Source: a phage
Length of the DNA: 64,000 bases
Reading direction: 5' to 3' (one strand)
NCBI GenBank assembly: GCA_018093385.1
Contig: GCA_018093385.1_4808.1
Positions 2,274 to 54,036 of this stretch are shown in pieces. Below the pieces are notes generated by a model. That model saw nothing but the letters and a program-made list of their open reading frames with translations, was not told where the DNA came from and did no database searches. Within the stretch, counting starts at the first letter, position 1, and every line of letters begins with the position of its first letter. Both the position numbers and the translations under genes were made by a program.

Positions 2274-2342
2274 TTTAAACTCCTAGTTCTCGACGGGCGT
2301 TAACGACCTATTCGTTAACTCATCCCGTCCCGATATGAGTAC

Positions 2343-2370
2343 ATTATAATATAGTGTAGAAAAAAGTAAA
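2343..2370 (-). promoter_or_regulatory. Promoter TTTACT-N16-TATAAT driving 1989-2273
   Basis: Shares core aaaagtgctttact...tacact...tataatgt with the promoter at 2813-2841. Confidence 0.5.
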
Positions 2371-2414
2371 GCACTTTTTCGATAAAAATGAGATAAATTA
2401 TTTTATCTTTTTTC

Positions 2415-2498: not shown

Positions 2499-2801
2499 AT
2501 GACCACTTTAATCTCTTCTATCCTTACTTACGACGAAGACCGTTTAACCGTTCGCTCTCTTATCGCCGCCGTTAACGCGGAACTAGAATCCACCATTATT
2601 AAGGTCCGCGCGGTCGCTTTCGTCGGCCTTTCCTTCGACGATATTAAGTACGCCGAACGTAGCGCCATCCGCTTCGCGAAGACCGACGACGAAGCCGTTA
2701 CCCTTATCGAGACGGTTACGCCGCGCGGCGAAGCGTTAATTATCGTCGAGTATATCGACGTAGAAGGCGATAAGGCTTATAAATATTTTATTGCAGAATA
2801 A
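2499..2801 (+). CDS. Small hypothetical protein, paralog family member 2
   Basis: 100 aa from internal ATG with GGGAG SD; ORF track gives a longer 2442 start. Confidence 0.5.
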   Translation: MTTLISSILTYDEDRLTVRSLIAAVNAELESTIIKVRAVAFVGLSFDDIKYAERSAIRFAKTDDEAVTLIETVTPRGEALIIVEYIDVEGDKAYKYFIAE

Positions 2802-2812
2802 CGAAAAAGTGC

Positions 2813-2841
2813 TTTACTTCTTCGTACACTAAGACTATAAT
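2813..2841 (+). promoter_or_regulatory. Promoter TTTACT-N17-TATAAT driving 2909-3199
   Basis: Consensus hexamers; third member of repeated promoter family. Confidence 0.55.
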
Positions 2842-2908
2842 GTTTTATATCGAGAGGGGATGAGGTAGCGAATAGGTCGCTACCCGCCCGACCAACTAGG
2901 AGATTATT

Positions 2909-5660: not shown

Positions 5661-7994
5661 TTATTTCGCTGATTTCAGCGCGGCTATCTCTGCCTCTAGT
5701 GATTCAACCTTTTTCATCAACTCCTGCACCACGTGCATCGTGTCAAGAAGCATTGGAGTTGTGTCTAGTTGTTTTTGTTCAACCTCTACGCCTTCGCTCG
5801 GATAGAATTTCACCGTTTTTACATACAACGGGTCAATAATCTCTGCTTGTTGAGCGATGACACCCCTTCTTACCCTTTCCTTTTCATCATTGTTGTAAAT
5901 AAATGTCACATATTCCAACGATGAAAGGTTGCTCCATGCTTTTTCAACCGTTCCTGGCTGTATGTCATGCTTCAAATTCTCATCAGAGATGGCATTCTTT
6001 TGAAGAGTATAAAAGCTATCTGATCCAAGAATTGATACAGAGAAAAACACATCATGAGAGTTAGGCTGTATGTTCATCCTTGTCTGGTACTGCGCATTAT
6101 CATCTCCAACGACGAGCCAAGTGCCCTGCGCAAAACTTCCGTTATTGTTGTGGATCAAACCGTGGTGAAGCGTTGTGGCATAACCTGTATCAACCTGTTG
6201 ACCGCCGCTAAAAAGACTGTTGAAAGCATAGTTTTGACCCATTGACTGTCTCACCGTTGCATAGGTGCCGATTCTTGTTCCAGTCTCACTCCAAGACATT
6301 AAGCTTCCATATCTCGCGGCGAATCTGTCGCTGCTAAGAGTTCCTGCATCATCAAATGCAAGGTCTTTAGTCACCCCTTTTGTTTTATTGTACACAGACA
6401 GTATTGCATAATAAAATCCATCCATGTATGCATCGCATCGCAATCCGGCATCAGCTTCAACAACAGTACCAATTTTGTATTGTGCCCTTACTTGCCCTGA
6501 AGACCCCTTAACCCCAGAGCCTGGTCGAACAGAATCCGCATTGATAACTGACCATTGCGTATTCGCGGCAACAAAGCCACCAGATGCACGAATCACCCAA
6601 ACACCGACAAAGTTGCGCGGCACGATTTCAGCCGCTGATCTTCCGTATACAGGGCTTGATCGAGAAGCGTCAAAGTTTGTTTGTATGAATCTTGAACCAG
6701 AACCTGCTGCTGCTGGAGAGTCCCCAGAAGTGATCGACTGAAAAGCGCCATTAGTCGCCACCTGACTTGGCGCAGAAGCCAACGTGACCATTGTGCGCGG
6801 CGCGGAGTAAGTTATATTTGGTGCACCTGACTCAGAAACGACTCCATTTGATGATGGATTGCCTCCATCACCTCGACCGAACAGGGCCTGAATAGAACCC
6901 GTCTGCACGCCGTTTCGGTCCGGCACACGAAATGTTGTCGTTCCGTTACCTAAAGAGTATTTACCGCGTTTCGCTGGGTCCGCTAACCAATCTGCATCTG
7001 CAATAGGTGAAAGCATTTGCGCATACGCCCAAAGTTCAGGCCAGTCAGCGCGGTTTAACAACTGCCCATCAGCAACGACTTCATACGGTTGAATATAAGC
7101 ACGGCTGTCGCGTAAGTGGAAGTCACCGACGCCATAGTTCATAACGCCGTTCATACTTGGTCCAACGGTGCCTGTGTTTACTAAGTTCTCAACCCAACGC
7201 TTGGTCGCGGCATCATGATCGTTTACTGGGTCACCAGCAAGCGGTGTTGCACCTTGTGGACGAATATTCAACCATGCTTGCGCATTGTCGGCTGACCCTG
7301 TGCCGCCCATAGAAGTCGGAACGATGTTTTGATCAGCGACTGTGCCAAATCCAAAAGCGGACTTCATACCCTGAATGGTAGTTTGGCCTGTGCCGCCGTT
7401 GGCGACTGGGATTATGCTTGACTCGGAATAAATCATGACCCAAGGAGACCACGTGCTATTTTGAGCGTTGAATCTTCTTTGGTAAGTATTGTTAATGGAA
7501 TATGATGTGTATTTTTGAATGCAACTTTCGGTCGATACTCCTGTTTGCAACACCTCTAAGACTCCTGCTTGTTCAACAGGATAGTTCAATCCAAAAGAGG
7601 CGGCGCCATCAGAGTTCTGATAATATTGCCCAAACCAGCTGCCGGTAAGAGCATTAAGATTCATGCCGGAAGGAACAGTGCCAAAATTTCGCAAGGTATT
7701 GGTCAAAGTCGCAGCAGTTGTTCGAATGGAAAGCATGTCACCAGCCGCCCATGCACGCGCTGCAGTTCCTTCCTGCGCACGCTGCACGGTTAGCACGTTT
7801 CCAACTACGGCTGTTACTGTGACGATTTCAAATTGGAGGCCTGTTGCAGCGTCGACGATTGTCGCCACTACACGCTCGTTCGCGGCCAAGGTCGGAAAGC
7901 CCGACCCTGAGCGGATTGTGATTGTGGTGTCTGAAGTCGTCGTTGGCTGGGCAAGCGCGACCTCAAAGTTGTTTTTGAATATTAGCCTTGGCAT
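5661..7994 (-). CDS. Tail fibre/tailspike protein with C-terminal intramolecular chaperone (peptidase S74-like) domain
   Basis: C-terminus LKHDIQP...GVIAQQAEIIDP...coiled-coil tail matches the self-cleaving chaperone module; Gly/Ser/Thr-rich body. Confidence 0.7.
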   Translation of the reverse strand: MPRLIFKNNFEVALAQPTTTSDTTITIRSGSGFPTLAANERVVATIVDAATGLQFEIVTVTAVVGNVLTVQRAQEGTAARAWAAGDMLSIRTTAATLTNTLRNFGTVPSGMNLNALTGSWFGQYYQNSDGAASFGLNYPVEQAGVLEVLQTGVSTESCIQKYTSYSINNTYQRRFNAQNSTWSPWVMIYSESSIIPVANGGTGQTTIQGMKSAFGFGTVADQNIVPTSMGGTGSADNAQAWLNIRPQGATPLAGDPVNDHDAATKRWVENLVNTGTVGPSMNGVMNYGVGDFHLRDSRAYIQPYEVVADGQLLNRADWPELWAYAQMLSPIADADWLADPAKRGKYSLGNGTTTFRVPDRNGVQTGSIQALFGRGDGGNPSSNGVVSESGAPNITYSAPRTMVTLASAPSQVATNGAFQSITSGDSPAAAGSGSRFIQTNFDASRSSPVYGRSAAEIVPRNFVGVWVIRASGGFVAANTQWSVINADSVRPGSGVKGSSGQVRAQYKIGTVVEADAGLRCDAYMDGFYYAILSVYNKTKGVTKDLAFDDAGTLSSDRFAARYGSLMSWSETGTRIGTYATVRQSMGQNYAFNSLFSGGQQVDTGYATTLHHGLIHNNNGSFAQGTWLVVGDDNAQYQTRMNIQPNSHDVFFSVSILGSDSFYTLQKNAISDENLKHDIQPGTVEKAWSNLSSLEYVTFIYNNDEKERVRRGVIAQQAEIIDPLYVKTVKFYPSEGVEVEQKQLDTTPMLLDTMHVVQELMKKVESLEAEIAALKSAK

Positions 7995-16020: not shown

Positions 16021-16300
16021 ATACGTATAATGACGTATCATCCGTATCAAGTAAGTTGTTGTTTTCAAAAGAATCTTACGGATGATACGGATGATACGCA
16101 TTGCCGCCGTACTATATAGGAATTCAAATAAATTAATTTAAAATTATATATCTAATTTAATTTTATTTTTTTATAAACTCTTATATATGAAAAGTATCCG
16201 TATCATCCGTATCATCCGTAGCACACCAGTGATAGCGCGGCTTATACACCGATACGGATAAAAATACGCCTCATTTTATCCGTATCATCCGTATCACACT
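16021..16300. repeat. Iteron-like element copy B: inverted repeat CGTATCATCCGTA (16034-16046) / TACGGATGATACG (16077-16089), AT-rich core (16100-16190), direct ATCCGTATC repeats (16195-16221, 16278-16295)
   Basis: Read directly; identical arms and spacing to 84-140. Confidence 0.8.
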
Positions 16301-30715: not shown

Positions 30716-30744
30716 TTGCTTATAGACTCCTTATAGATTATAAT
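30716..30744 (+). promoter_or_regulatory. Internal promoter TTGCTT-N17-TATAAT before baseplate genes
   Basis: Hexamers followed by AGGAG SD. Confidence 0.4.
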
Positions 30745-30768
30745 TTGTTGATCAGATATAAGGAGTCT

Positions 30769-31497
30769 ATGATGGCAGAGAAGTTAACTCAACTTACAAG
30801 CCCCAACCAAACTGACAAATCAAGTATGTTTGCCGCGCTGCAGGGAATGCTGGACCGTGGCAAGTATACCACTGACGGCATGATTCCTGCACAAGTAATA
30901 TCTTATGACCGCAAACAGAATTTAGCAGTCATAAAGCCTGTTATTCATTTCGTAAGTCTTGATGATAAACCAGTGGAGCGTCAACCTCTGGTGTCAATTC
31001 CTGTATTGGCAATCGGCGGCGGCGGCTTTGTAATCAACTTTCCTTTGAAAGAAGGTGATTTGGGCTGGATATTCGCTGGCGACCGCGAGTTGTCGACATT
31101 CCTTGAAGAATTGAAGCCGACCGCGCCCACCAATGGTCGCGCGAAAACTTTCGCTGATGGACTGTTCATACCGGATGTATTTCGAAAATACACCATAAGC
31201 GGAGAGGATGCAGGCTCAATGGTAATTCAGTCCCTCAGCGGCGCTGTACGAATTGCATTAAGTGATGACTCGATAAACATAACCGCATCAGCTGGGGTAA
31301 ACGTGAAAACACCAATCACCACTATCGACCAACAACTGATAGTGAATGGAAAGGCAACATTCAATGGTGGTATAGAAGGGAAAGAAGGAACGACGGCAAC
31401 GCTTCCGACTGGCACCACAATCGGCGGCACAAATGTATCCACTCACGGGCACATAGGTAACGGACCTGGAAACAGAACTGGGGATATGATAGAATGA
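30769..31497 (+). CDS. Baseplate spike/assembly protein (gpV-like, putative)
   Basis: OB-fold-like N-region; start at ATG after AGGAG (ORF track 30745). Confidence 0.45.
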   Translation: MMAEKLTQLTSPNQTDKSSMFAALQGMLDRGKYTTDGMIPAQVISYDRKQNLAVIKPVIHFVSLDDKPVERQPLVSIPVLAIGGGGFVINFPLKEGDLGWIFAGDRELSTFLEELKPTAPTNGRAKTFADGLFIPDVFRKYTISGEDAGSMVIQSLSGAVRIALSDDSINITASAGVNVKTPITTIDQQLIVNGKATFNGGIEGKEGTTATLPTGTTIGGTNVSTHGHIGNGPGNRTGDMIE

Positions 31498-41992: not shown

Positions 41993-42550
41993 TTACTTTT
42001 TGCTTTTAGGCAAGGTTATTTTAGCTTCTTTGTATTCAAAAACGCTAATATCTTCACTAACTGGATTGCCTGCTTCCAGCTGTTCTTTTACAAATGACTT
42101 CAGTGTAGCAGAATGAACGCCTTGTTTCAATGTGGCTTCAACACCATCTTCACGCAGCGCGGCAACAATCTCTTGCGCCTGTTCGATTTCTTCGCGACCG
42201 AACTCAGCCGTGACGCTGGACTTGATCAGGCCGCCGTAACCGTTGTTGACAAGCCAATCGAAAACTTTTAATTCGTTTTCTTTCTTGATCGAAGCATTCA
42301 CCTTGGACTCGACCTTGATTTTGGTCTTGTCCTCAAGCTTGATCTCAGACACGCCAAGCTCATCCATAACGCCAGGAAGCAGAACAGTTTTGATTTCACT
42401 GATTCGCTGCTTTTGCATATCAGCTTCATCTTCAAGCTCTGTCAAAGCTTCTTGGCGTTCTGCCAGTTCAGATACTAAGCGCGCAAGGCGCTCTTGAATG
42501 CTCTCAGGAGCGACCTGCGGCAAATCATCTTCCCAATTAATATTGCTCAT
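41993..42550 (-). CDS. Hypothetical coiled-coil protein
   Basis: 185 aa, GAAGG SD. Confidence 0.45.
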   Translation of the reverse strand: MSNINWEDDLPQVAPESIQERLARLVSELAERQEALTELEDEADMQKQRISEIKTVLLPGVMDELGVSEIKLEDKTKIKVESKVNASIKKENELKVFDWLVNNGYGGLIKSSVTAEFGREEIEQAQEIVAALREDGVEATLKQGVHSATLKSFVKEQLEAGNPVSEDISVFEYKEAKITLPKSKK

Positions 42551-42810
42551 ATTTTACCTTCTTGCATTAGCCCTTCAACACGGGTCATTTGATAACGTTC
42601 AGGTTTCCAAGCCGCCAAAGCCTTCTCAGCGCCTTTCAAGGTTTTATATGCCTTGATGCCAGGCATAATAACGGTATTCACCCCAGCACCGTTGCCATAA
42701 TCAAACTCTTTAACAACGCGGAACATCCCGTCAATTTCTTTGACCAAAAGACGTTTGAAAGCGATTGCGCCAGTAGCTTCATTTTTGTAACGTTCAAGGA
42801 TGCGTACCAT
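42547..42810 (-). CDS. Hypothetical protein
   Basis: 87 aa, GAGGA SD. Confidence 0.45.
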   Translation of the reverse strand: MVRILERYKNEATGAIAFKRLLVKEIDGMFRVVKEFDYGNGAGVNTVIMPGIKAYKTLKGAEKALAAWKPERYQMTRVEGLMQEGKI

Positions 42811-42842
42811 TTTGTATTCCTCTGTTTCGTTTCGATGAAGTA

Positions 42843-42871
42843 ATTATGACTCATCTTCCGTGACAAGTCAA
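42843..42871 (-). promoter_or_regulatory. Promoter TTGACT-N17-CATAAT; shares about 30 bp with the promoter at 49676-49704
   Basis: ttcgtttcgatga(a/g)gtaa(t/a)tat(g/a)actcatc present at both sites. Confidence 0.45.
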
Positions 42872-48307: not shown

Positions 48308-48859
48308 TTATACAGTGTACGGAGTACCGTCTTGATTTAAGCGCACGATAAACTTCAAATCAACGCCGATGATTTCACGCGTATCAAAGATCACATAGTT
48401 GTAACGACGTTGACCAGCAATGTTCGGGTTGGTATGAGAGTCAGTTACAACTTCCTGTGCAACCTGAATACCTTCTTCGCTAAAGAACTTACGCCATTCA
48501 GCAAGTTCAGCGGCAGTCACGTGCATACCAAGGTGGCTGACCTGATTGTCATGCGCATCGATATATTCGATGTTTTCGTTAATCCAGTTGCAGCCCATTG
48601 TGTAGTCAAGGATTTCAAGCTCAAGAGGCTTACCAGCGCCGCCATCAGTACCGTTGCCAGCCTGATAGTTGAAGCGCAAGTCAGCTTCATTGGTGCAATC
48701 GTCGCGACGACCTTTAAAGTCATCAGCTTCAAATACGCGACCAGTAGCAACAACATGATCATGGAACCATTCTGTCAGGCCGATTTTAGCCAAGAAATCC
48801 TGTGCGCGCTGAGCATCTGGAATTGACAGGGCGATTTGTTCAATTTTAAAATGTGGCAT
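48308..48859 (-). CDS. VOC-fold (glyoxalase/dioxygenase-like) protein, putative
   Basis: Two beta-alpha-beta-like modules; weak motif-level call. Confidence 0.35.
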   Translation of the reverse strand: MPHFKIEQIALSIPDAQRAQDFLAKIGLTEWFHDHVVATGRVFEADDFKGRRDDCTNEADLRFNYQAGNGTDGGAGKPLELEILDYTMGCNWINENIEYIDAHDNQVSHLGMHVTAAELAEWRKFFSEEGIQVAQEVVTDSHTNPNIAGQRRYNYVIFDTREIIGVDLKFIVRLNQDGTPYTV

Positions 48860-48955
48860 TTTGTTTCCTTAATTAAATATTATTGATTAATTACTGTGTT
48901 GTCTTCGTCCTGTTTCTTTTCAGGAGCGGGTGTGACAACTTCAAATGTTCGTGAT

Positions 48956-49639
48956 TTATTTACCAAATGGAATATCAGTACCAGACATAAAGCGCCATGC
49001 GCCTGTAATTAAGATATGGCGAATGAAGTCAGCAATTACTTGCGGCTCAGTCTCCAATCCATTCATCAATGCCTTTTTCTGGTATTCAGCGGCGTATTCA
49101 GGAGTCCAGCCGCGAGTCGCGCAAACTGCATCTTCAATCTGTTTAGACATGCCAGTGCCGCGCAACTTGTTAGGACTAATAGAGAATACCGTGATGCCGT
49201 ACTTAGGCGTAAGTTCGTGAGCCATCTGCTTGCTGATCATAAGCGCAGCGGCCTTGGATGCATTATAACACAAGCTGGACGTCATAGGAATATGCGCAGC
49301 GTTGGAAACGATGTTGATCACAAAGCCTTTGTTGTCGATAAGACTTTTCAGCGCAGCCTGAGTCGTGTTAACGAAAGAGAATGCGTTGGTGTGCATAACG
49401 CGGTTAAACTCTTCATAGTTTACATCTTCAAACCAATTGTTAGAGTTGACACCAGCACAGTTGATCAAGCCTTCAACATCATATGGGCTTAAAATTTCTT
49501 TCATCTGTTTAGCATCGCGGACGTCATATCCGTATGCTGAATCGATGCCAAGCACGTTATGACCGTAAGCGCCAAGGGTGTCAAAAATAGATTTACCAAG
49601 ACCGGAATTGGAACCTGTTACAACAATTACTTTTTTCAT
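48956..49639 (-). CDS. Short-chain dehydrogenase/reductase (classical SDR)
   Basis: TGSNSGLG, NCAG, YNASK motifs. Confidence 0.7.
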   Translation of the reverse strand: MKKVIVVTGSNSGLGKSIFDTLGAYGHNVLGIDSAYGYDVRDAKQMKEILSPYDVEGLINCAGVNSNNWFEDVNYEEFNRVMHTNAFSFVNTTQAALKSLIDNKGFVINIVSNAAHIPMTSSLCYNASKAAALMISKQMAHELTPKYGITVFSISPNKLRGTGMSKQIEDAVCATRGWTPEYAAEYQKKALMNGLETEPQVIADFIRHILITGAWRFMSGTDIPFGK

Positions 49640-49660
49640 TTATTTATCCTTTTTGGACTT

Positions 49661-49704
49661 CGTTTCGATGAGGTAAATATAACTCATCGAAACGCACAAG
49701 TAAA
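49661..49704 (-). promoter_or_regulatory. Promoter TTTACT-N17-TATATT with 12-bp perfect inverted repeat (49661-49672 / 49683-49694) centred on the -10
   Basis: Read directly on minus strand upstream of SDR gene. Confidence 0.5.
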
Positions 49705-50580
49705 CTATTTATTGAAATTAATATTATGGGTGTTTACAAGACGTTCACACATGGCGCTATAAACACCATCGTCGTGTATTGAGTCTTCGTGCTTCAGGCC
49801 GCTGATTGCGAAGCGTGTAAGCTTGACAATCTTAAGCTCGAACAGATGCCACATGTGGTAGTCTTCCGGTGTTTTCAGCGTCACGCCATTAGGGAACAGT
49901 ACCTGCATAACCTGACCTACCATCACAGCGTTATCGCCATAGACAGCGTTGCGCTCACGGAAGGTCGCGGCCATCGCATCAAGAATATCGGCGGCGGTTG
50001 CTGGGCCTTGTGGTTCAACTTCAACAACTTTAGTCTCTTCTTTCCCTGTTGCGCTTGGATCAACTGCTAATTGCTGCACCATTTCACCTGCCTTGCAAAG
50101 ATTAAATGTAAAAGCGATTTTATTTTGAGCAACGGAATTATAATACAAGGCTTCATCTTGCATCGCCGCGAGTACGTCTTGTCGGTCGTCGAATACATTA
50201 ATGATTCGATAATCGCCGTGCCGCAAAGCGTGCGATAGCCATCCAGATTTCATAATAGTTGATGGACGTTTGTCGCCAGAGTCTCTCATCTTGATTGTAA
50301 ATTCATCAAAAGGGAAAACATTGTCCAGACGTTCAAAAGTCACTTGTCTGTATTTTTCTGGCCTTGCAGTCCAATATTCAACCGCCTCACCGCGAAGAGA
50401 TGCCGACTCTACTGCTGATGCAATGTGAGGATAGAACTGATCATAACCAATACCGCTGTGATAGTCATCATAGTCTGACAACGGACCTGCCACCTTGATG
50501 CGGTCTAAGCGCCAACGGTCATCAAACAGCGTTCCGTCAAGGTCGAATACGTTTAAGATTTCGCTGTTTTTAATGCTCAT
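49705..50580 (-). CDS. HAD-superfamily phosphatase-like protein with uncharacterised C-terminal domain
   Basis: HAD motif I DLDGTL near N-terminus. Confidence 0.5.
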   Translation of the reverse strand: MSIKNSEILNVFDLDGTLFDDRWRLDRIKVAGPLSDYDDYHSGIGYDQFYPHIASAVESASLRGEAVEYWTARPEKYRQVTFERLDNVFPFDEFTIKMRDSGDKRPSTIMKSGWLSHALRHGDYRIINVFDDRQDVLAAMQDEALYYNSVAQNKIAFTFNLCKAGEMVQQLAVDPSATGKEETKVVEVEPQGPATAADILDAMAATFRERNAVYGDNAVMVGQVMQVLFPNGVTLKTPEDYHMWHLFELKIVKLTRFAISGLKHEDSIHDDGVYSAMCERLVNTHNINFNK

Positions 50581-51393: not shown

Positions 51394-51840
51394 TTAACGG
51401 TAATTCACTAGTTGCTGATCACCAGAGAAGGTGCAATGATAAACGAATTGTGCGTTATAAAGCAACTGAAAACTTTTCTTTGGTTCATTATTAGAACTCA
51501 TTGATGTAAAGATTTCTGCACCAGAACGGTTTTCACCAATCAGGTTAATAAAGCCGCCAGTTGAACGAGGCTGAACGAAAGTGAAACGCTGCATCCACGG
51601 AGTCCGGTTGGCACCTTTTCCGGTGAATCCCTGAATCTGAATATTCAGACCTTCTTGCTCGTTCACACCGATGTAAGTGGTAATTGTTGCGCCAGTCGTC
51701 GCTGCGGTCTTGCCGTCCATCGCTTCGCAATCGTAAACAGCGATTGAATCGGAAGTACGGACAGCGGCTTCAGTCGCTTCCATATACATGGTTCCGAGAA
51801 TAGCAGTCGCGGCAAGCGCGATTCCAGTGATGCGTTTCAT
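51394..51840 (-). CDS. Secreted protein of unknown function
   Basis: Signal peptide MKRITGIALAATAILGTMYMEATEAA; AGAGGAAA SD. Confidence 0.5.
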   Translation of the reverse strand: MKRITGIALAATAILGTMYMEATEAAVRTSDSIAVYDCEAMDGKTAATTGATITTYIGVNEQEGLNIQIQGFTGKGANRTPWMQRFTFVQPRSTGGFINLIGENRSGAEIFTSMSSNNEPKKSFQLLYNAQFVYHCTFSGDQQLVNYR

Positions 51841-51858: not shown

Positions 51859-51905
51859 TTCTGCTTCAATGATTAAAGTATACGCCCATTGAAGCAGAAA
51901 GCAAA
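51859..51905 (-). promoter_or_regulatory. Promoter TTTGCT-N17-TATACT with 13-bp perfect inverted repeat (51859-51871 / 51887-51899) flanking the -10
   Basis: Read directly; same architecture as 49661-49704. Confidence 0.5.
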
Positions 51906-52901
51906 TTATTTATTAGCAATATAAGCAAATTTTTGATAGTTATTTGCTTTGATGAGTTTTTCAACTTCAGCAAGGTCATGAGCGACGTCATCAAGCAAAA
52001 TGTTTCGCCAAGTAGCGAATCGACCGACACTAAATACGTTCAAATCCATAGTCAACTGGAGCAGTAAGGCGTGGCGCAAGTCTTTCGGAATGTCGACAAT
52101 TTTGCCATACTTCTGGTCAACCTTTTCAACTTCTTCCAAAGAGATGTCATTCCATGAAAGACCAAAAGCGGTAAGAACTTCATCCACTTCTGCACGCAGC
52201 TTCATGTCGCGATAACGGGTAATGCCGCCAGCGGCTTCAACTGCTGCCGCGCTGACGCTTACCAATGGAATTGTTTCAATGATCAGCGTGTCACCAGTGA
52301 TTGATGCGCGGTAAGTCCTTACAGAATAGTCAGGGAAGTAAATTGTTTGATAAAGTTCACACTTGCGCTTAATCTTAAAACGATAAACGCGAATATTTGC
52401 CTTATCAAACGAGAAGTCGAGCTTTTGATCAATACCAGCAAGCTTCATCATGACTGGCAGCGGCGATGTGTTGATGATTGGCGTCTCGCTATAGCCGCAA
52501 AGCGTGTCGACCGGAGTATTAAAGAATATACGGTCACCCAGTTTATCGACAAGTTGATCATAAAAGTCATCCGGCGCTATGTAGCGCGTAGCAGTTTGAA
52601 GCTTCATGATTGAGCGGCTGCCAAACTGGTTGGTGACTTTCATAGAGTACATATTGGCAAGGTTAATCGGGCAGTGGCCGTGATAGTAGTTGCCACGAAA
52701 ATACACAGCCTTATCGACTGTCACGGCCTTAAAGGGGATTCCGGTAATACGGCTTACTTCTTCGCCGCGAAATCGTAGCAGCGCCTTGTGCTGCGCGACG
52801 CGTTCGCCTGCTTCGTACACAATAGAGTTCGGAAAGTGACAAGCCGTGATAAGTCCTGCCAGTCCGCCGCCGATAATCATTACAGGTTGTTTCATGTTCA
52901 T
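51906..52901 (-). CDS. FAD/NAD(P)-binding oxidoreductase (UDP-galactopyranose mutase / amine-oxidase-like fold, putative)
   Basis: N-terminal Rossmann IIGGGLAGL; C-terminal GRFATWRNILLDDV resembles the family tail. Confidence 0.5.
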   Translation of the reverse strand: MNMKQPVMIIGGGLAGLITACHFPNSIVYEAGERVAQHKALLRFRGEEVSRITGIPFKAVTVDKAVYFRGNYYHGHCPINLANMYSMKVTNQFGSRSIMKLQTATRYIAPDDFYDQLVDKLGDRIFFNTPVDTLCGYSETPIINTSPLPVMMKLAGIDQKLDFSFDKANIRVYRFKIKRKCELYQTIYFPDYSVRTYRASITGDTLIIETIPLVSVSAAAVEAAGGITRYRDMKLRAEVDEVLTAFGLSWNDISLEEVEKVDQKYGKIVDIPKDLRHALLLQLTMDLNVFSVGRFATWRNILLDDVAHDLAEVEKLIKANNYQKFAYIANK

Positions 52902-53034: not shown

Positions 53035-53877
53035 TTATTCTGCTTGATCGTCGTGCTCTTCGGCATCTGCTTCGGATTCAACATCGATGAACTCGATGTG
53101 GCCCATCTCTTCCAGTTTGCTCAGGTAAGAGCGAACTGAAGCGCCAAACAGCTGATCTTTAACTTTTTCACCCAGCTCGTCGATAGACTGCGGCTGACCG
53201 ATTTCACCTTCTTTGATCGCAGCCAGTACGCGACCACGGGTGGAATGTTCTTGCGGCTGGCTCAGGCCGTTTCCGGTGTAAACAAAGTGAGTTGCTTTAG
53301 CGCGACGCTGACCATTAGCTTTCTTGGCGGCTTTACGCTCTGCAATCGCTTTGCGACGCTCTTCAGCTTCTTTCTTACGCTGTTCTTTCTGTTGTTCTGC
53401 AGCTTCTTTCGCCGCGATCTTAGCAGCTTCACGCTCTGCCTTGCGTTTCGCTTTCGCTTCTTCTTTAGCCTTTTCTTTTTCGGCTTTCGCTTCTGCACGG
53501 GCCTGATCACGTTCAGCCTTTTTCGCCGCAGCTTGTTCAGCTTTCAGGCGCTTGGCTTCTTCTTTCGCCTTTGCCTTTTCAATTTCTTTAGCGGCTTTAG
53601 CGGCTTCACGCTCTGCCTTCTTAGCAGCAGCCTTTTCAGCACGCTCTGCAGCCTTCTTAGCGGCTTCTTCAGCACGCTTCTGAGCCTTCTCGTCAGCAGC
53701 CTGCTTGCGTTTCAGCGCAGCTTCTTCACGCTTGGCTTGTTTTTCCTGCTCACGCTTCTGGCGTTTTTCTTCGGCTTCTTTCTTTTTAGCCAGGCGTTTT
53801 TCTTCAGCCACGCGACGACGTTCTGCTGCGGCTGCTTGTTTTTCTTCTTTAGATAATACTTTGATTGCTTCGGCCAT
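53035..53877 (-). CDS. Lys/Ala/Glu-rich low-complexity protein with globular C-terminal domain
   Basis: About 190 aa of KAE repeats then about 85 aa of normal composition; ATG 53877 has AAGGA SD (ORF track 53883 is GTG). Confidence 0.5.
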   Translation of the reverse strand: MAEAIKVLSKEEKQAAAAERRRVAEEKRLAKKKEAEEKRQKREQEKQAKREEAALKRKQAADEKAQKRAEEAAKKAAERAEKAAAKKAEREAAKAAKEIEKAKAKEEAKRLKAEQAAAKKAERDQARAEAKAEKEKAKEEAKAKRKAEREAAKIAAKEAAEQQKEQRKKEAEERRKAIAERKAAKKANGQRRAKATHFVYTGNGLSQPQEHSTRGRVLAAIKEGEIGQPQSIDELGEKVKDQLFGASVRSYLSKLEEMGHIEFIDVESEADAEEHDDQAE

Positions 53878-54036
53878 ATTCACAGTCCTTAAATAAATTA
53901 GTTTATTTTATATTCCCCGTTTGGGATAACTTAATTATGCCTTCAGTCGCCGCCAGTAGCAACTAAAAACTATGGCGGCAATGCCACTTTAATTAAACTG
54001 ATTTTCAGTTTTATTTTTCGTAAATTTACGTCAACA

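Follow-up and report, generated by a model that had tools for sequence, protein, structure and literature searches.

The sequence analysed here is a stretch of 64,000 nucleotides of phage DNA, referred to below as the window. Over the 2 kb around the locus of interest it shares 93-98% identity with some 30 myophages of Escherichia and Shigella that belong to the genus Wifcevirus, among them WFC, WFH, ECML-117, FEC19, vB_Eco4M-7 and Bas98-101, and judged by these matches the window is that of an E. coli myophage of this genus (family Lindbergviridae, a placement taken from one database record). Wifcevirus is a distant relative of Pbunavirus (BASEL paper). The locus, called site A here, is the 65-nt gap between a gene for polynucleotide kinase/phosphatase (PNK) and a downstream SDR/FabG-like gene (Table 1). 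It lies in a replication and nucleotide-metabolism module, all of whose genes are on the minus strand. Beyond the 3' end of the SDR gene there is a further gap of 96 nt (48860-48955), left over from an ORF for a small membrane protein that phages kaset and Bas98 still have intact; a deletion between short AAATTTGAAGTT repeats accounts for its loss.

Read on the minus strand from 49707 to 49637, site A runs TAG-TTTACT-tgtg-CGTTTCGATGAG-t-TATATT-tac-CTCATCGAAACG-aagtccaaaaAGGAtaaataa-ATG. The PNK stop codon TAG (49705-49707) adjoins the -35 hexamer, so that an AT-rich stretch and the upstream stop codon stand just 5' of the -35, and the Shine-Dalgarno sequence (SD) and start codon of the next gene stand at the 3' end (...AATATTAATTTCAATAAATAG-TTTACT...AAGGAtaaataaATG). 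An earlier reading, made from the sequence only, had described TTTACT-N17-TATATT upstream of the SDR gene, together with a perfect 12-bp dyad centred on the -10 element. Both are present, the promoter on the minus strand between the PNK stop and the SDR gene, and the dyad with its centre 1 nt from the centre of the -10. The description of the promoter as symmetrically flanked holds in part: the arms do bracket the -10, but the whole promoter is not flanked, the 5' arm being within the -35/-10 spacer and the 3' arm forming the discriminator and start region. The 3' arm doubles as a conserved CTCATCGAAAC box, within which the predicted start site falls. Judged by spacing, transcription would begin at about 49669 (an A, 7 nt after the -10); the 5' arm is upstream of this position, and would therefore be absent from transcripts of this promoter.

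Table 1. Features of site A and of the related sites in the window
Feature	Position	Strand	Evidence or remark
PNK gene (upstream of site A)	49705..50580	-	ORF list, Pfam HAD_PNKP, annotation in relatives
SDR/FabG-like gene	48956-49639	-	Pfam adh_short, E = 2.6e-31
SD of SDR gene, AAGGA	49647-49651	-	sequence
Site A -35, TTTACT	49699-49704	-	TTTACT also used by this phage's early promoters
Site A -10, TATATT	49676-49681	-	17-nt spacer to -35
Site A dyad, 5' arm, CGTTTCGATGAG	49683-49694	-	fills 12 of the 17 spacer positions
Site A loop, 10 nt, TTATATTTAC	49673-49682	-	sequence; holds the -10
Site A dyad, 3' arm, CTCATCGAAACG	49661-49672	-	12/12 complementary to 5' arm
Copy B -35, TTGACT	42866-42871	-	promoter scan
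Copy B -10, CATAAT	42843-42848	-	N17 spacing
Copy B box, TTCATCGAAACG	42828-42839	-	match to site A
Copy B own 9-bp spacer hairpin, TGACTTGTC-acggaa-GATGAGTCA	42847-42870	-	two G·U pairs; register unlike that of site A
Site C -35, TTTGCT	51900-51905	-	16 or 17 nt to -10, by the hexamer read
Site C 13-bp 5' arm, TTCTGCTTCAATG	51887-51899	-	unrelated to the site A arms
Site C -10, TATACT, in 15-nt loop (ggcg TATACT ttaat)	51877-51882	-	sequence
Site C 3' arm, CATTGAAGCAGAA	51859-51871	-	complementary to TTCTGCTTCAATG
Site D -35, TTGCTT	30716-30721	+	upstream of baseplate spike gene
Site D 14-bp 5' arm, ATAGACTCCTTATA	30722-30735	+	perfect dyad
Site D -10, TATAAT, in 21-nt loop (gat TATAAT ttgttgatcaga)	30739-30744	+	sequence
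Site D 3' arm, TATAAGGAGTCTAT	30757-30770	+	holds AAGGAG and the first two bases of ATG (30769-30771)

The promoter at site A matches the consensus at 9 of 12 positions. This is weak alone, as 26 such matches were found where 20 were expected from shuffles, and the support for the promoter therefore comes from its conservation across genera. In Pantoea phage Kyle, whose helicase is 71% identical, the SDR junction reads TTGACG cctcttccaaaggggcg TATTCT tat CTCATCTTAAACGAA, and in the Serratia-type L006 and L007 it reads TTGACT gcaggccaaggatggcc GATAAT. The hexamers and the 17-nt spacing are thus kept in these genera while the spacers are unrelated to that of site A, which bears out the promoter reading and suggests that site A is an active promoter. 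Each of these promoters also has a hairpin of its own. In Kyle this is ACGCCTCTT-cca-AAGGGGCGT, located in the spacer and followed by a T-rich tail and -10 region, and in L006 and L007 it is GGCCA-agga-TGGCC. No promoter was found at the SDR junction in the more distant relatives L008-L013, because there the SDR gene abuts the PNK gene. The CTCATCGAAAC box of site A is found in addition at copy B, a second promoter in the window, in the SDR promoter of Kyle (CTCATCTTAAACGAA) and in L008 (CTCATCGAAAG).

Within Wifcevirus, 18 genomes were compared and 29 records were screened at site A. The hexamers and their spacing are invariant in all but one of the 29 records, the exception being phage TH35, in which the -10 is TATCTT (TAnnnT being kept). 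The -35 TTTACT is invariant in the 19 Wifcevirus sequences read, and the 61-nt match of the 29 records has at most two mismatches. Just two substitutions are found in the arms, in Bas99 and Bas101, and both are C-to-T changes opposite a G, which leave a G·U pair in the sense RNA but an A·C on the other strand. The other changes are in the loop (where the position adjoining the 3' arm is polymorphic, C or T), in the 4-nt flank or in the A-run before the SD. Across these 18 genomes and 29 records there is nearly no covariation at sites A and C, the genomes being too similar and site C invariant. The evidence from covariation described below consequently comes from a homologous promoter other than site A, and from other genera.

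The whole window was scanned for inverted repeats with perfect arms of at least 12 bp and loops of 3-24 nt. There are four, whereas 20 dinucleotide shuffles gave 0.05 on average and never more than 1. In three of the four the loop contains a promoter-like -10, preceded at a distance of 17 nt by a -35-like hexamer (at site C the distance is 16 or 17 nt), and both lie on the same strand as the gene that follows; for random positions, a promoter-like -10 in a loop of such size is found in 1-3% of cases per site. These three, sites A, C and D, have a common layout, with the -35 abutting or nearly abutting the 5' arm, the 5' arm in the spacer and the -10 in the loop. Site C is upstream of ORFan 51394-51840 and is invariant in 18 Wifcevirus genomes. 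The design of site D is kept in L114 and L115 (47% amino-acid identity), which have unrelated arms (TCTCTCCCGGTG/CACCGGGAGAGA) in a 12-bp dyad, with TATAAT in a 21-nt loop and the SD in the 3' arm. Site D therefore points to a role at the RNA level for dyads of this phage family that have the -10 in the loop.

The four short gaps in which sites A, B, C and D are found (57-74 nt) all have a hairpin embedded in a promoter. Longer gaps are organised differently. In the 133-nt gap upstream of 51906-52901, a GC-rich terminator with a T-run stands by itself ahead of a promoter, and canonical terminators are also present in the gaps of 120 and 176 nt of the same module. The ORFs behind sites C and B (51394-51840 and 42547-42810) have no homologue in Kyle or in L006-L009, and in Kyle the conserved promoter of site C stands before an unrelated ORF. 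Sites A, B and C are all followed by accessory or variable genes.

Copy B is upstream of ORFan 42547-42810. The sequence-only reading had noted that about 30 bp recur here and that the dyad is only partial, and both observations stand: positions 42826-42855 and 49659-49688 are identical at 27 of 30 positions, and of the dyad just GATGA/TCATC is kept. Copy B has instead the spacer hairpin listed in Table 1, and its sole variable base among relatives (C, T or G) falls in the loop of this hairpin. The best reading of the likeness between A and B would be a common promoter family, with a core from the -35 to about +13, and not a common operator; the 30 bp or so that the two have in common extend from about -17 to +13.

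Comparison of these two promoters provides clues as to how the perfect dyad came about. They are homologous over about 52 nt save for 7 consecutive differences (gcgtttc in A, cacggaa in B). Six of the seven differing bases of A are exactly complementary to GAAACG, which is conserved downstream, and the outer 6 nt of the 5' arm (CGTTTC) are in this block. At site C, the part that is conserved is the spacer sequence TTGCTTTCTGCT, and the complementary downstream arm is an insertion relative to Kyle; the orthologue in Kyle, which has TTGCTTTCTGCT in common, folds as GCTCA-agga-TGAGC within its spacer. One arm copied onto the other is the signature of template-switch (quasipalindrome) mutation. 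The perfect dyad of site A most likely arose by a templated mutation of the quasipalindrome type, in which the outer 6 nt of the spacer were rewritten as the complement of the ancestral GAAACG. Long perfect dyads thus appear to have arisen twice and independently in the Wifcevirus lineage, at promoters A and C, with one side copied onto the other in each case.

It could be argued that this is all there is to explain: a template switch perfected a short GATGAG/CTCATC repeat in a B-type promoter, and the resulting long dyad has no function and persists in young and similar genomes. The block of seven differences and the inserted arm of site C would both be accounted for, as would the perfection of the arms, which is as expected for young repeats, and the Wifcevirus genomes are indeed 93-98% identical. 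However, random template switching does not predict that three of the four long dyads should bracket a -10 in like geometry; junction hairpins are kept in every genus examined despite complete turnover of their sequence; and both of the arm substitutions are compatible with pairing. We therefore regard a functionless by-product as unlikely.

The conservation of pairing can be examined most directly at the promoter that follows the helicase gene, represented by copy B and its orthologues. A gapless alignment was made for eight phages, namely the window, Kyle, two Serratia-type phages, L008, Pbunavirus LBL3, L016 and Xanthomonas FoX6; in LBL3 the promoter reads TAGCCG-N17-CATAAT. A helicase-anchored search was widened to 80 IMG/VR loci; beyond about 40% identity the gene order differs, and these loci were left out. 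Burkholderia BCSR52 was left out of the covariation count, its hairpin being shifted by 2 nt. The alignment has a 9-bp helix that extends from the second base of the -35 to the second base of the -10, with 91.7% of cells paired, compared to 31-49% when the partner is slid. Changes on both sides are seen in six of the nine pairs and in 14 cells. None of 500 shuffles reached the values of the helix on four of five measures, and on the fifth, the number of pairs changed on both sides, 2 of 500 did so. Seven internal cells are G·U on the gene strand, and there is no internal A·C cell. In L017, L018 and L024 the -10 is inside the hairpin instead. Pairing that is conserved while the sequence turns over, with G·U pairs on the sense strand, is by this comparative evidence the signature of base pairing and not of recognition by a protein.

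This bears directly on the function that had been proposed for the dyad, that of a repressor operator with a dedicated regulator. On such a model a dimeric protein of phage or host would bind two CTCATCGAAACG half-sites, cover the -10 and shut off the SDR unit, with weaker binding at copy B. In its favour, the dyad is perfect and is centred on the -10, one half-site recurs at copy B, and a diverged form of it is found at the promoters of Kyle and L008; the conservation of this non-coding box extends across genera, so that a factor that binds the box would still be conceivable. Operators that overlap the -10 are well known (LexA boxes, lac O1 and lambda OR), and they resemble site A in having dyad symmetry centred on the core promoter. 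True operators are however conserved in sequence and are common to the promoters they regulate, whereas here it is the pairing that is conserved and not the sequence, as the orthologous promoters show. This geometry recurs at sites C and D although their arms are unrelated, so that three different regulators would be needed, and copy B has the promoter core but not the dyad, its own hairpin being in another register. A search of the whole window for the half-site gave 10 matches with at most two mismatches, compared to 6.9 expected; beyond site A (twice) and copy B the matches are at chance level, and the half-site is thus not enriched elsewhere. With 22 bp between their centres, the half-sites are widely spaced for a simple dimer operator, and both natural mutations in the arms keep the RNA pairing yet alter one half-site only. 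Pfam scans for regulators in 30 proteins detected no DNA-binding domain; the same result for 20 small early proteins is a weak negative, as these are mostly ORFans. The operator proposal thus fits the data poorly, and we consider it very unlikely.

If base pairing is what is conserved, it could take place either in RNA or in DNA. Several observations favour a hairpin in the sense RNA: the asymmetry of the G·U pairs; the better folding of the sense strand, which is seen at 13 of 20 promoter sites by a mean of 1.9 kcal/mol (Wilcoxon p = 0.015, a modest value for sites that are not fully independent); the changes in Bas99 and Bas101; and site D. It would follow that the hairpin acts in sense RNA rather than in DNA. 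The alternative is a switch at the level of DNA, in which extrusion of a cruciform takes the -10 out of the duplex and ties promoter activity to superhelical density or the state of replication. There are precedents for this, since the early promoters of phage N4 are extruded hairpins, and Horwitz and Loeb (1988) reportedly controlled an engineered E. coli promoter by cruciform extrusion. The perfect arms and the AT-rich centre of site A (TTATATTTAC) would favour extrusion, and there is little difference in folding between the two strands at A and C, where the arms are perfect. However, the wobble pairs are all on the sense strand, and the other strand would carry A·C mismatches; Bas99 and Bas101 tolerate asymmetric changes; a loop of 10-21 nt is unfavourable for extrusion; and site D points to a role in RNA. 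A cruciform switch therefore seems highly improbable.

Site A is in our view best explained as a cassette of promoter and stem-loop of the PeSL type (promoter-early stem-loop), in which a promoter of the sigma-70 type for the SDR gene is overlapped by a hairpin-forming repeat. We hold this explanation with moderate confidence. The arms of the repeat would be placed where sigma-70 does not read the DNA, one in the 17-nt spacer and the other around the start site, the loop holding the -10. A transcript initiated at the promoter of site A would lack the 5' arm and would stay open. Read-through RNA from the PNK gene would have both arms, which would pair to give a 12-bp hairpin with an energy of about -18 to -22 kcal/mol; the fold calculated for site A is -21.7 kcal/mol, with z = -5.4. 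Because the 5' arm is upstream of the predicted start, only RNA arriving from upstream could form the hairpin. The hairpin would therefore act on the upstream transcript, possibly as a site of polymerase pausing or attenuation, as a block to 3' exonucleases or as a processing site. It would mark the end of the upstream transcript, and the promoter would restart transcription for the downstream accessory gene.

Two other functions were considered for the hairpin and rejected. Classical intrinsic termination is unlikely because there is no U-tract: the loop is 10 nt, the tail AAGUCCAAAAAGG (AAGUCC...) has no run of U, and the site is absent from the terminator scan. Masking of the SD is rejected because the hairpin ends 21 nt short of the SDR ATG, and the SD is outside the stem.

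Processing by RNase III, or another double-strand-specific enzyme, would be a sub-variant of the RNA reading. The read-through hairpin would be cut, separating the PNK and SDR cistrons and leaving stabilising stem-loops, as do the R sites of T7. Stable perfect stems of 12-14 bp exactly between cistrons are consistent with this, as is the lack of a U-tract, which makes termination unlikely at A and C. The natural sites of E. coli RNase III are however about 20 bp long, against which these stems are short, and the spacer hairpins of relatives are only 5-10 bp. Nor is there a match to a curated RNA family: a search of the whole window against Rfam 15 gave no match at the gathering threshold, and near site A there was one miRNA match at chance level. 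We consider such processing to be quite unlikely.

The closest match to site A among known systems is provided by the PeSLs of T4-like phages (phi1/RB49, PST/T4 and nt-1/KVP40) (Arbiol et al. 2010, PMC2839356; Comeau et al. 2014, PMC4122927). In common with these, site A has a promoter of the sigma-70 type in a short gap between co-directional genes (PMC2839356; PMC4122927). The upstream stop codon is in an AT-rich stretch next to the -35, and the 12-bp stem-loop overlaps the promoter, with a helix that covaries across the family. There are also clear differences. The phage belongs to the Lindbergviridae and is not T4-like, and site A is in a replication module and not in hyperplastic regions. 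The cassettes are few and have low mutual similarity, only A and B resembling each other (27/30 across the core). PolyG/polyC stems are not seen; at A, C and D the stem, of 12-14 perfect pairs, encloses the entire -10 and is not followed by a U-rich tail. PeSLs serve as sites of homologous recombination and bound the indels that distinguish close relatives, whereas the one indel observed among the Wifcevirus genomes (between the SDR gene and 48308-48859) is the deletion between short AAATTTGAAGTT repeats, and recombination between cassettes was not observed; at the level of genera, the promoter of site C is kept while the ORF that follows it has been replaced.

A second point of comparison is provided by the T4 genes e, soc, 49 and I-TevI, which have an inhibitory hairpin with a promoter inside it (PMC3014915). 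As at the sites described here, the promoter is in the region encoding the 5' strand or the loop of the hairpin, so that the long read-through RNA folds and the promoter-proximal RNA does not. Site D agrees with this arrangement in every respect, the SD and the beginning of the start codon being included in its 3' arm (PMC3014915). Site A differs in that its SD is free and there is no masking of translation, and in that its inner promoter resembles a sigma-70 promoter rather than a T4 late promoter (TATAAATA). An arrangement of intrinsic terminator followed by restart promoter shares with site A a hairpin right after the stop codon. The embedded hairpins of Kyle meet the terminator consensus, and its two rank second and third among the terminator-like sites in the terminator scan; site A, by contrast, has a 10-nt loop and no U-tract.

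It is worth adding that 26 sigma-70-like promoters have been mapped in Pbunavirus 14-1 using ONT-cappable-seq, and that some of those tested are active in E. coli (PMC10914365). In the vB_Eco4M-7, JG024 and BASEL papers, which deal with Wifcevirus or PB1-like phages, promoter-hairpin elements of this kind are not described.

The design of promoter and stem-loop first described in T4-like phages would thus recur, accompanied by clear covariation, in the unrelated family to which Wifcevirus and the therapeutic Pbunavirus phages belong, and the attractive but unsupported operator reading of site A is corrected. What is modestly new is the family-wide covariation and the apparently templated origin of the perfect dyads, which provides two clean natural examples of perfect palindromes made inside promoters. 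For annotation and engineering, the implication is that short gaps before accessory genes may serve two purposes, ending or marking one transcript and starting the next, and that changes which look harmless for the promoter hexamers may still alter expression. A much bolder idea is that promoter-embedded hairpins are a regulatory grammar common to the Lindbergviridae, in which folding of read-through RNA or extrusion of DNA couples internal promoters to upstream transcription or supercoiling, and that the perfect dyads of Wifcevirus are switches that time its unusually fast infection cycle. If true, this would imply a mechanism beyond simple termination or masking. We regard it as speculation, with little chance of being right.

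Several other elements were noted in the course of the analysis. The fourth long perfect dyad of the window (16251-16286) is within a cluster of GTATCATCCGTA repeats at 16035-16293. This sequence has eight exact copies in the window, compared to 0.23 expected, and they form two clusters: at 85-139 there is an inverted pair 31 nt apart, and at 16035-16293 the copies are in both orientations, in a 300-bp AT-rich non-coding stretch before the structural genes. The GTATCATCCGTA copies look like iterons or operators, and would be a better candidate for the target of a dedicated regulator than is the dyad of site A. A second repeat, TTGCACTATG, has nine copies (six exact and three with one mismatch) within 1.3 kb (265-1563), all on the plus strand, and at least one of these (358-367) overlaps the ATG of the ORF starting at 365. 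The total number of TTGCACTATG copies in the window is not above chance, and it is their clustering and single orientation that are striking.

The early promoters at 2274-2380 (minus strand) and 2800-2908 (plus strand) have in common GTGCTTTACTT...TATAAT...TATATCGrGA, together with a hairpin in the 5' leader. The inner stem of this leader hairpin covaries between the two, being GTTAACGA-atagg-TCGTTAAC in the first and GGTAGCGA-atagg-TCGCTACC in the second. Upstream of gene 53035-53877 (at 53878-54036) there is a dyad that brackets the -35 (TTGCTA) and not the -10. It has two mismatches in the window, and is a perfect 10-bp dyad in FEC19 (TCGCCGCCAG/CTGGCGGCGA; L004 5630-5664). Finally, the distant relative L008 has at 6783-6876 a promoter of the site A family, with TGTrCGTTT in the spacer and the CTCATCGAAAG box. 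Its spacer pairs with a different downstream segment (TGTACGTTTG/CAAACGTACA), to form 10 bp with a 27-nt loop that holds the -10 and the box, and this hairpin has only the CGTTT:AAACG core pairing in common with that of site A.
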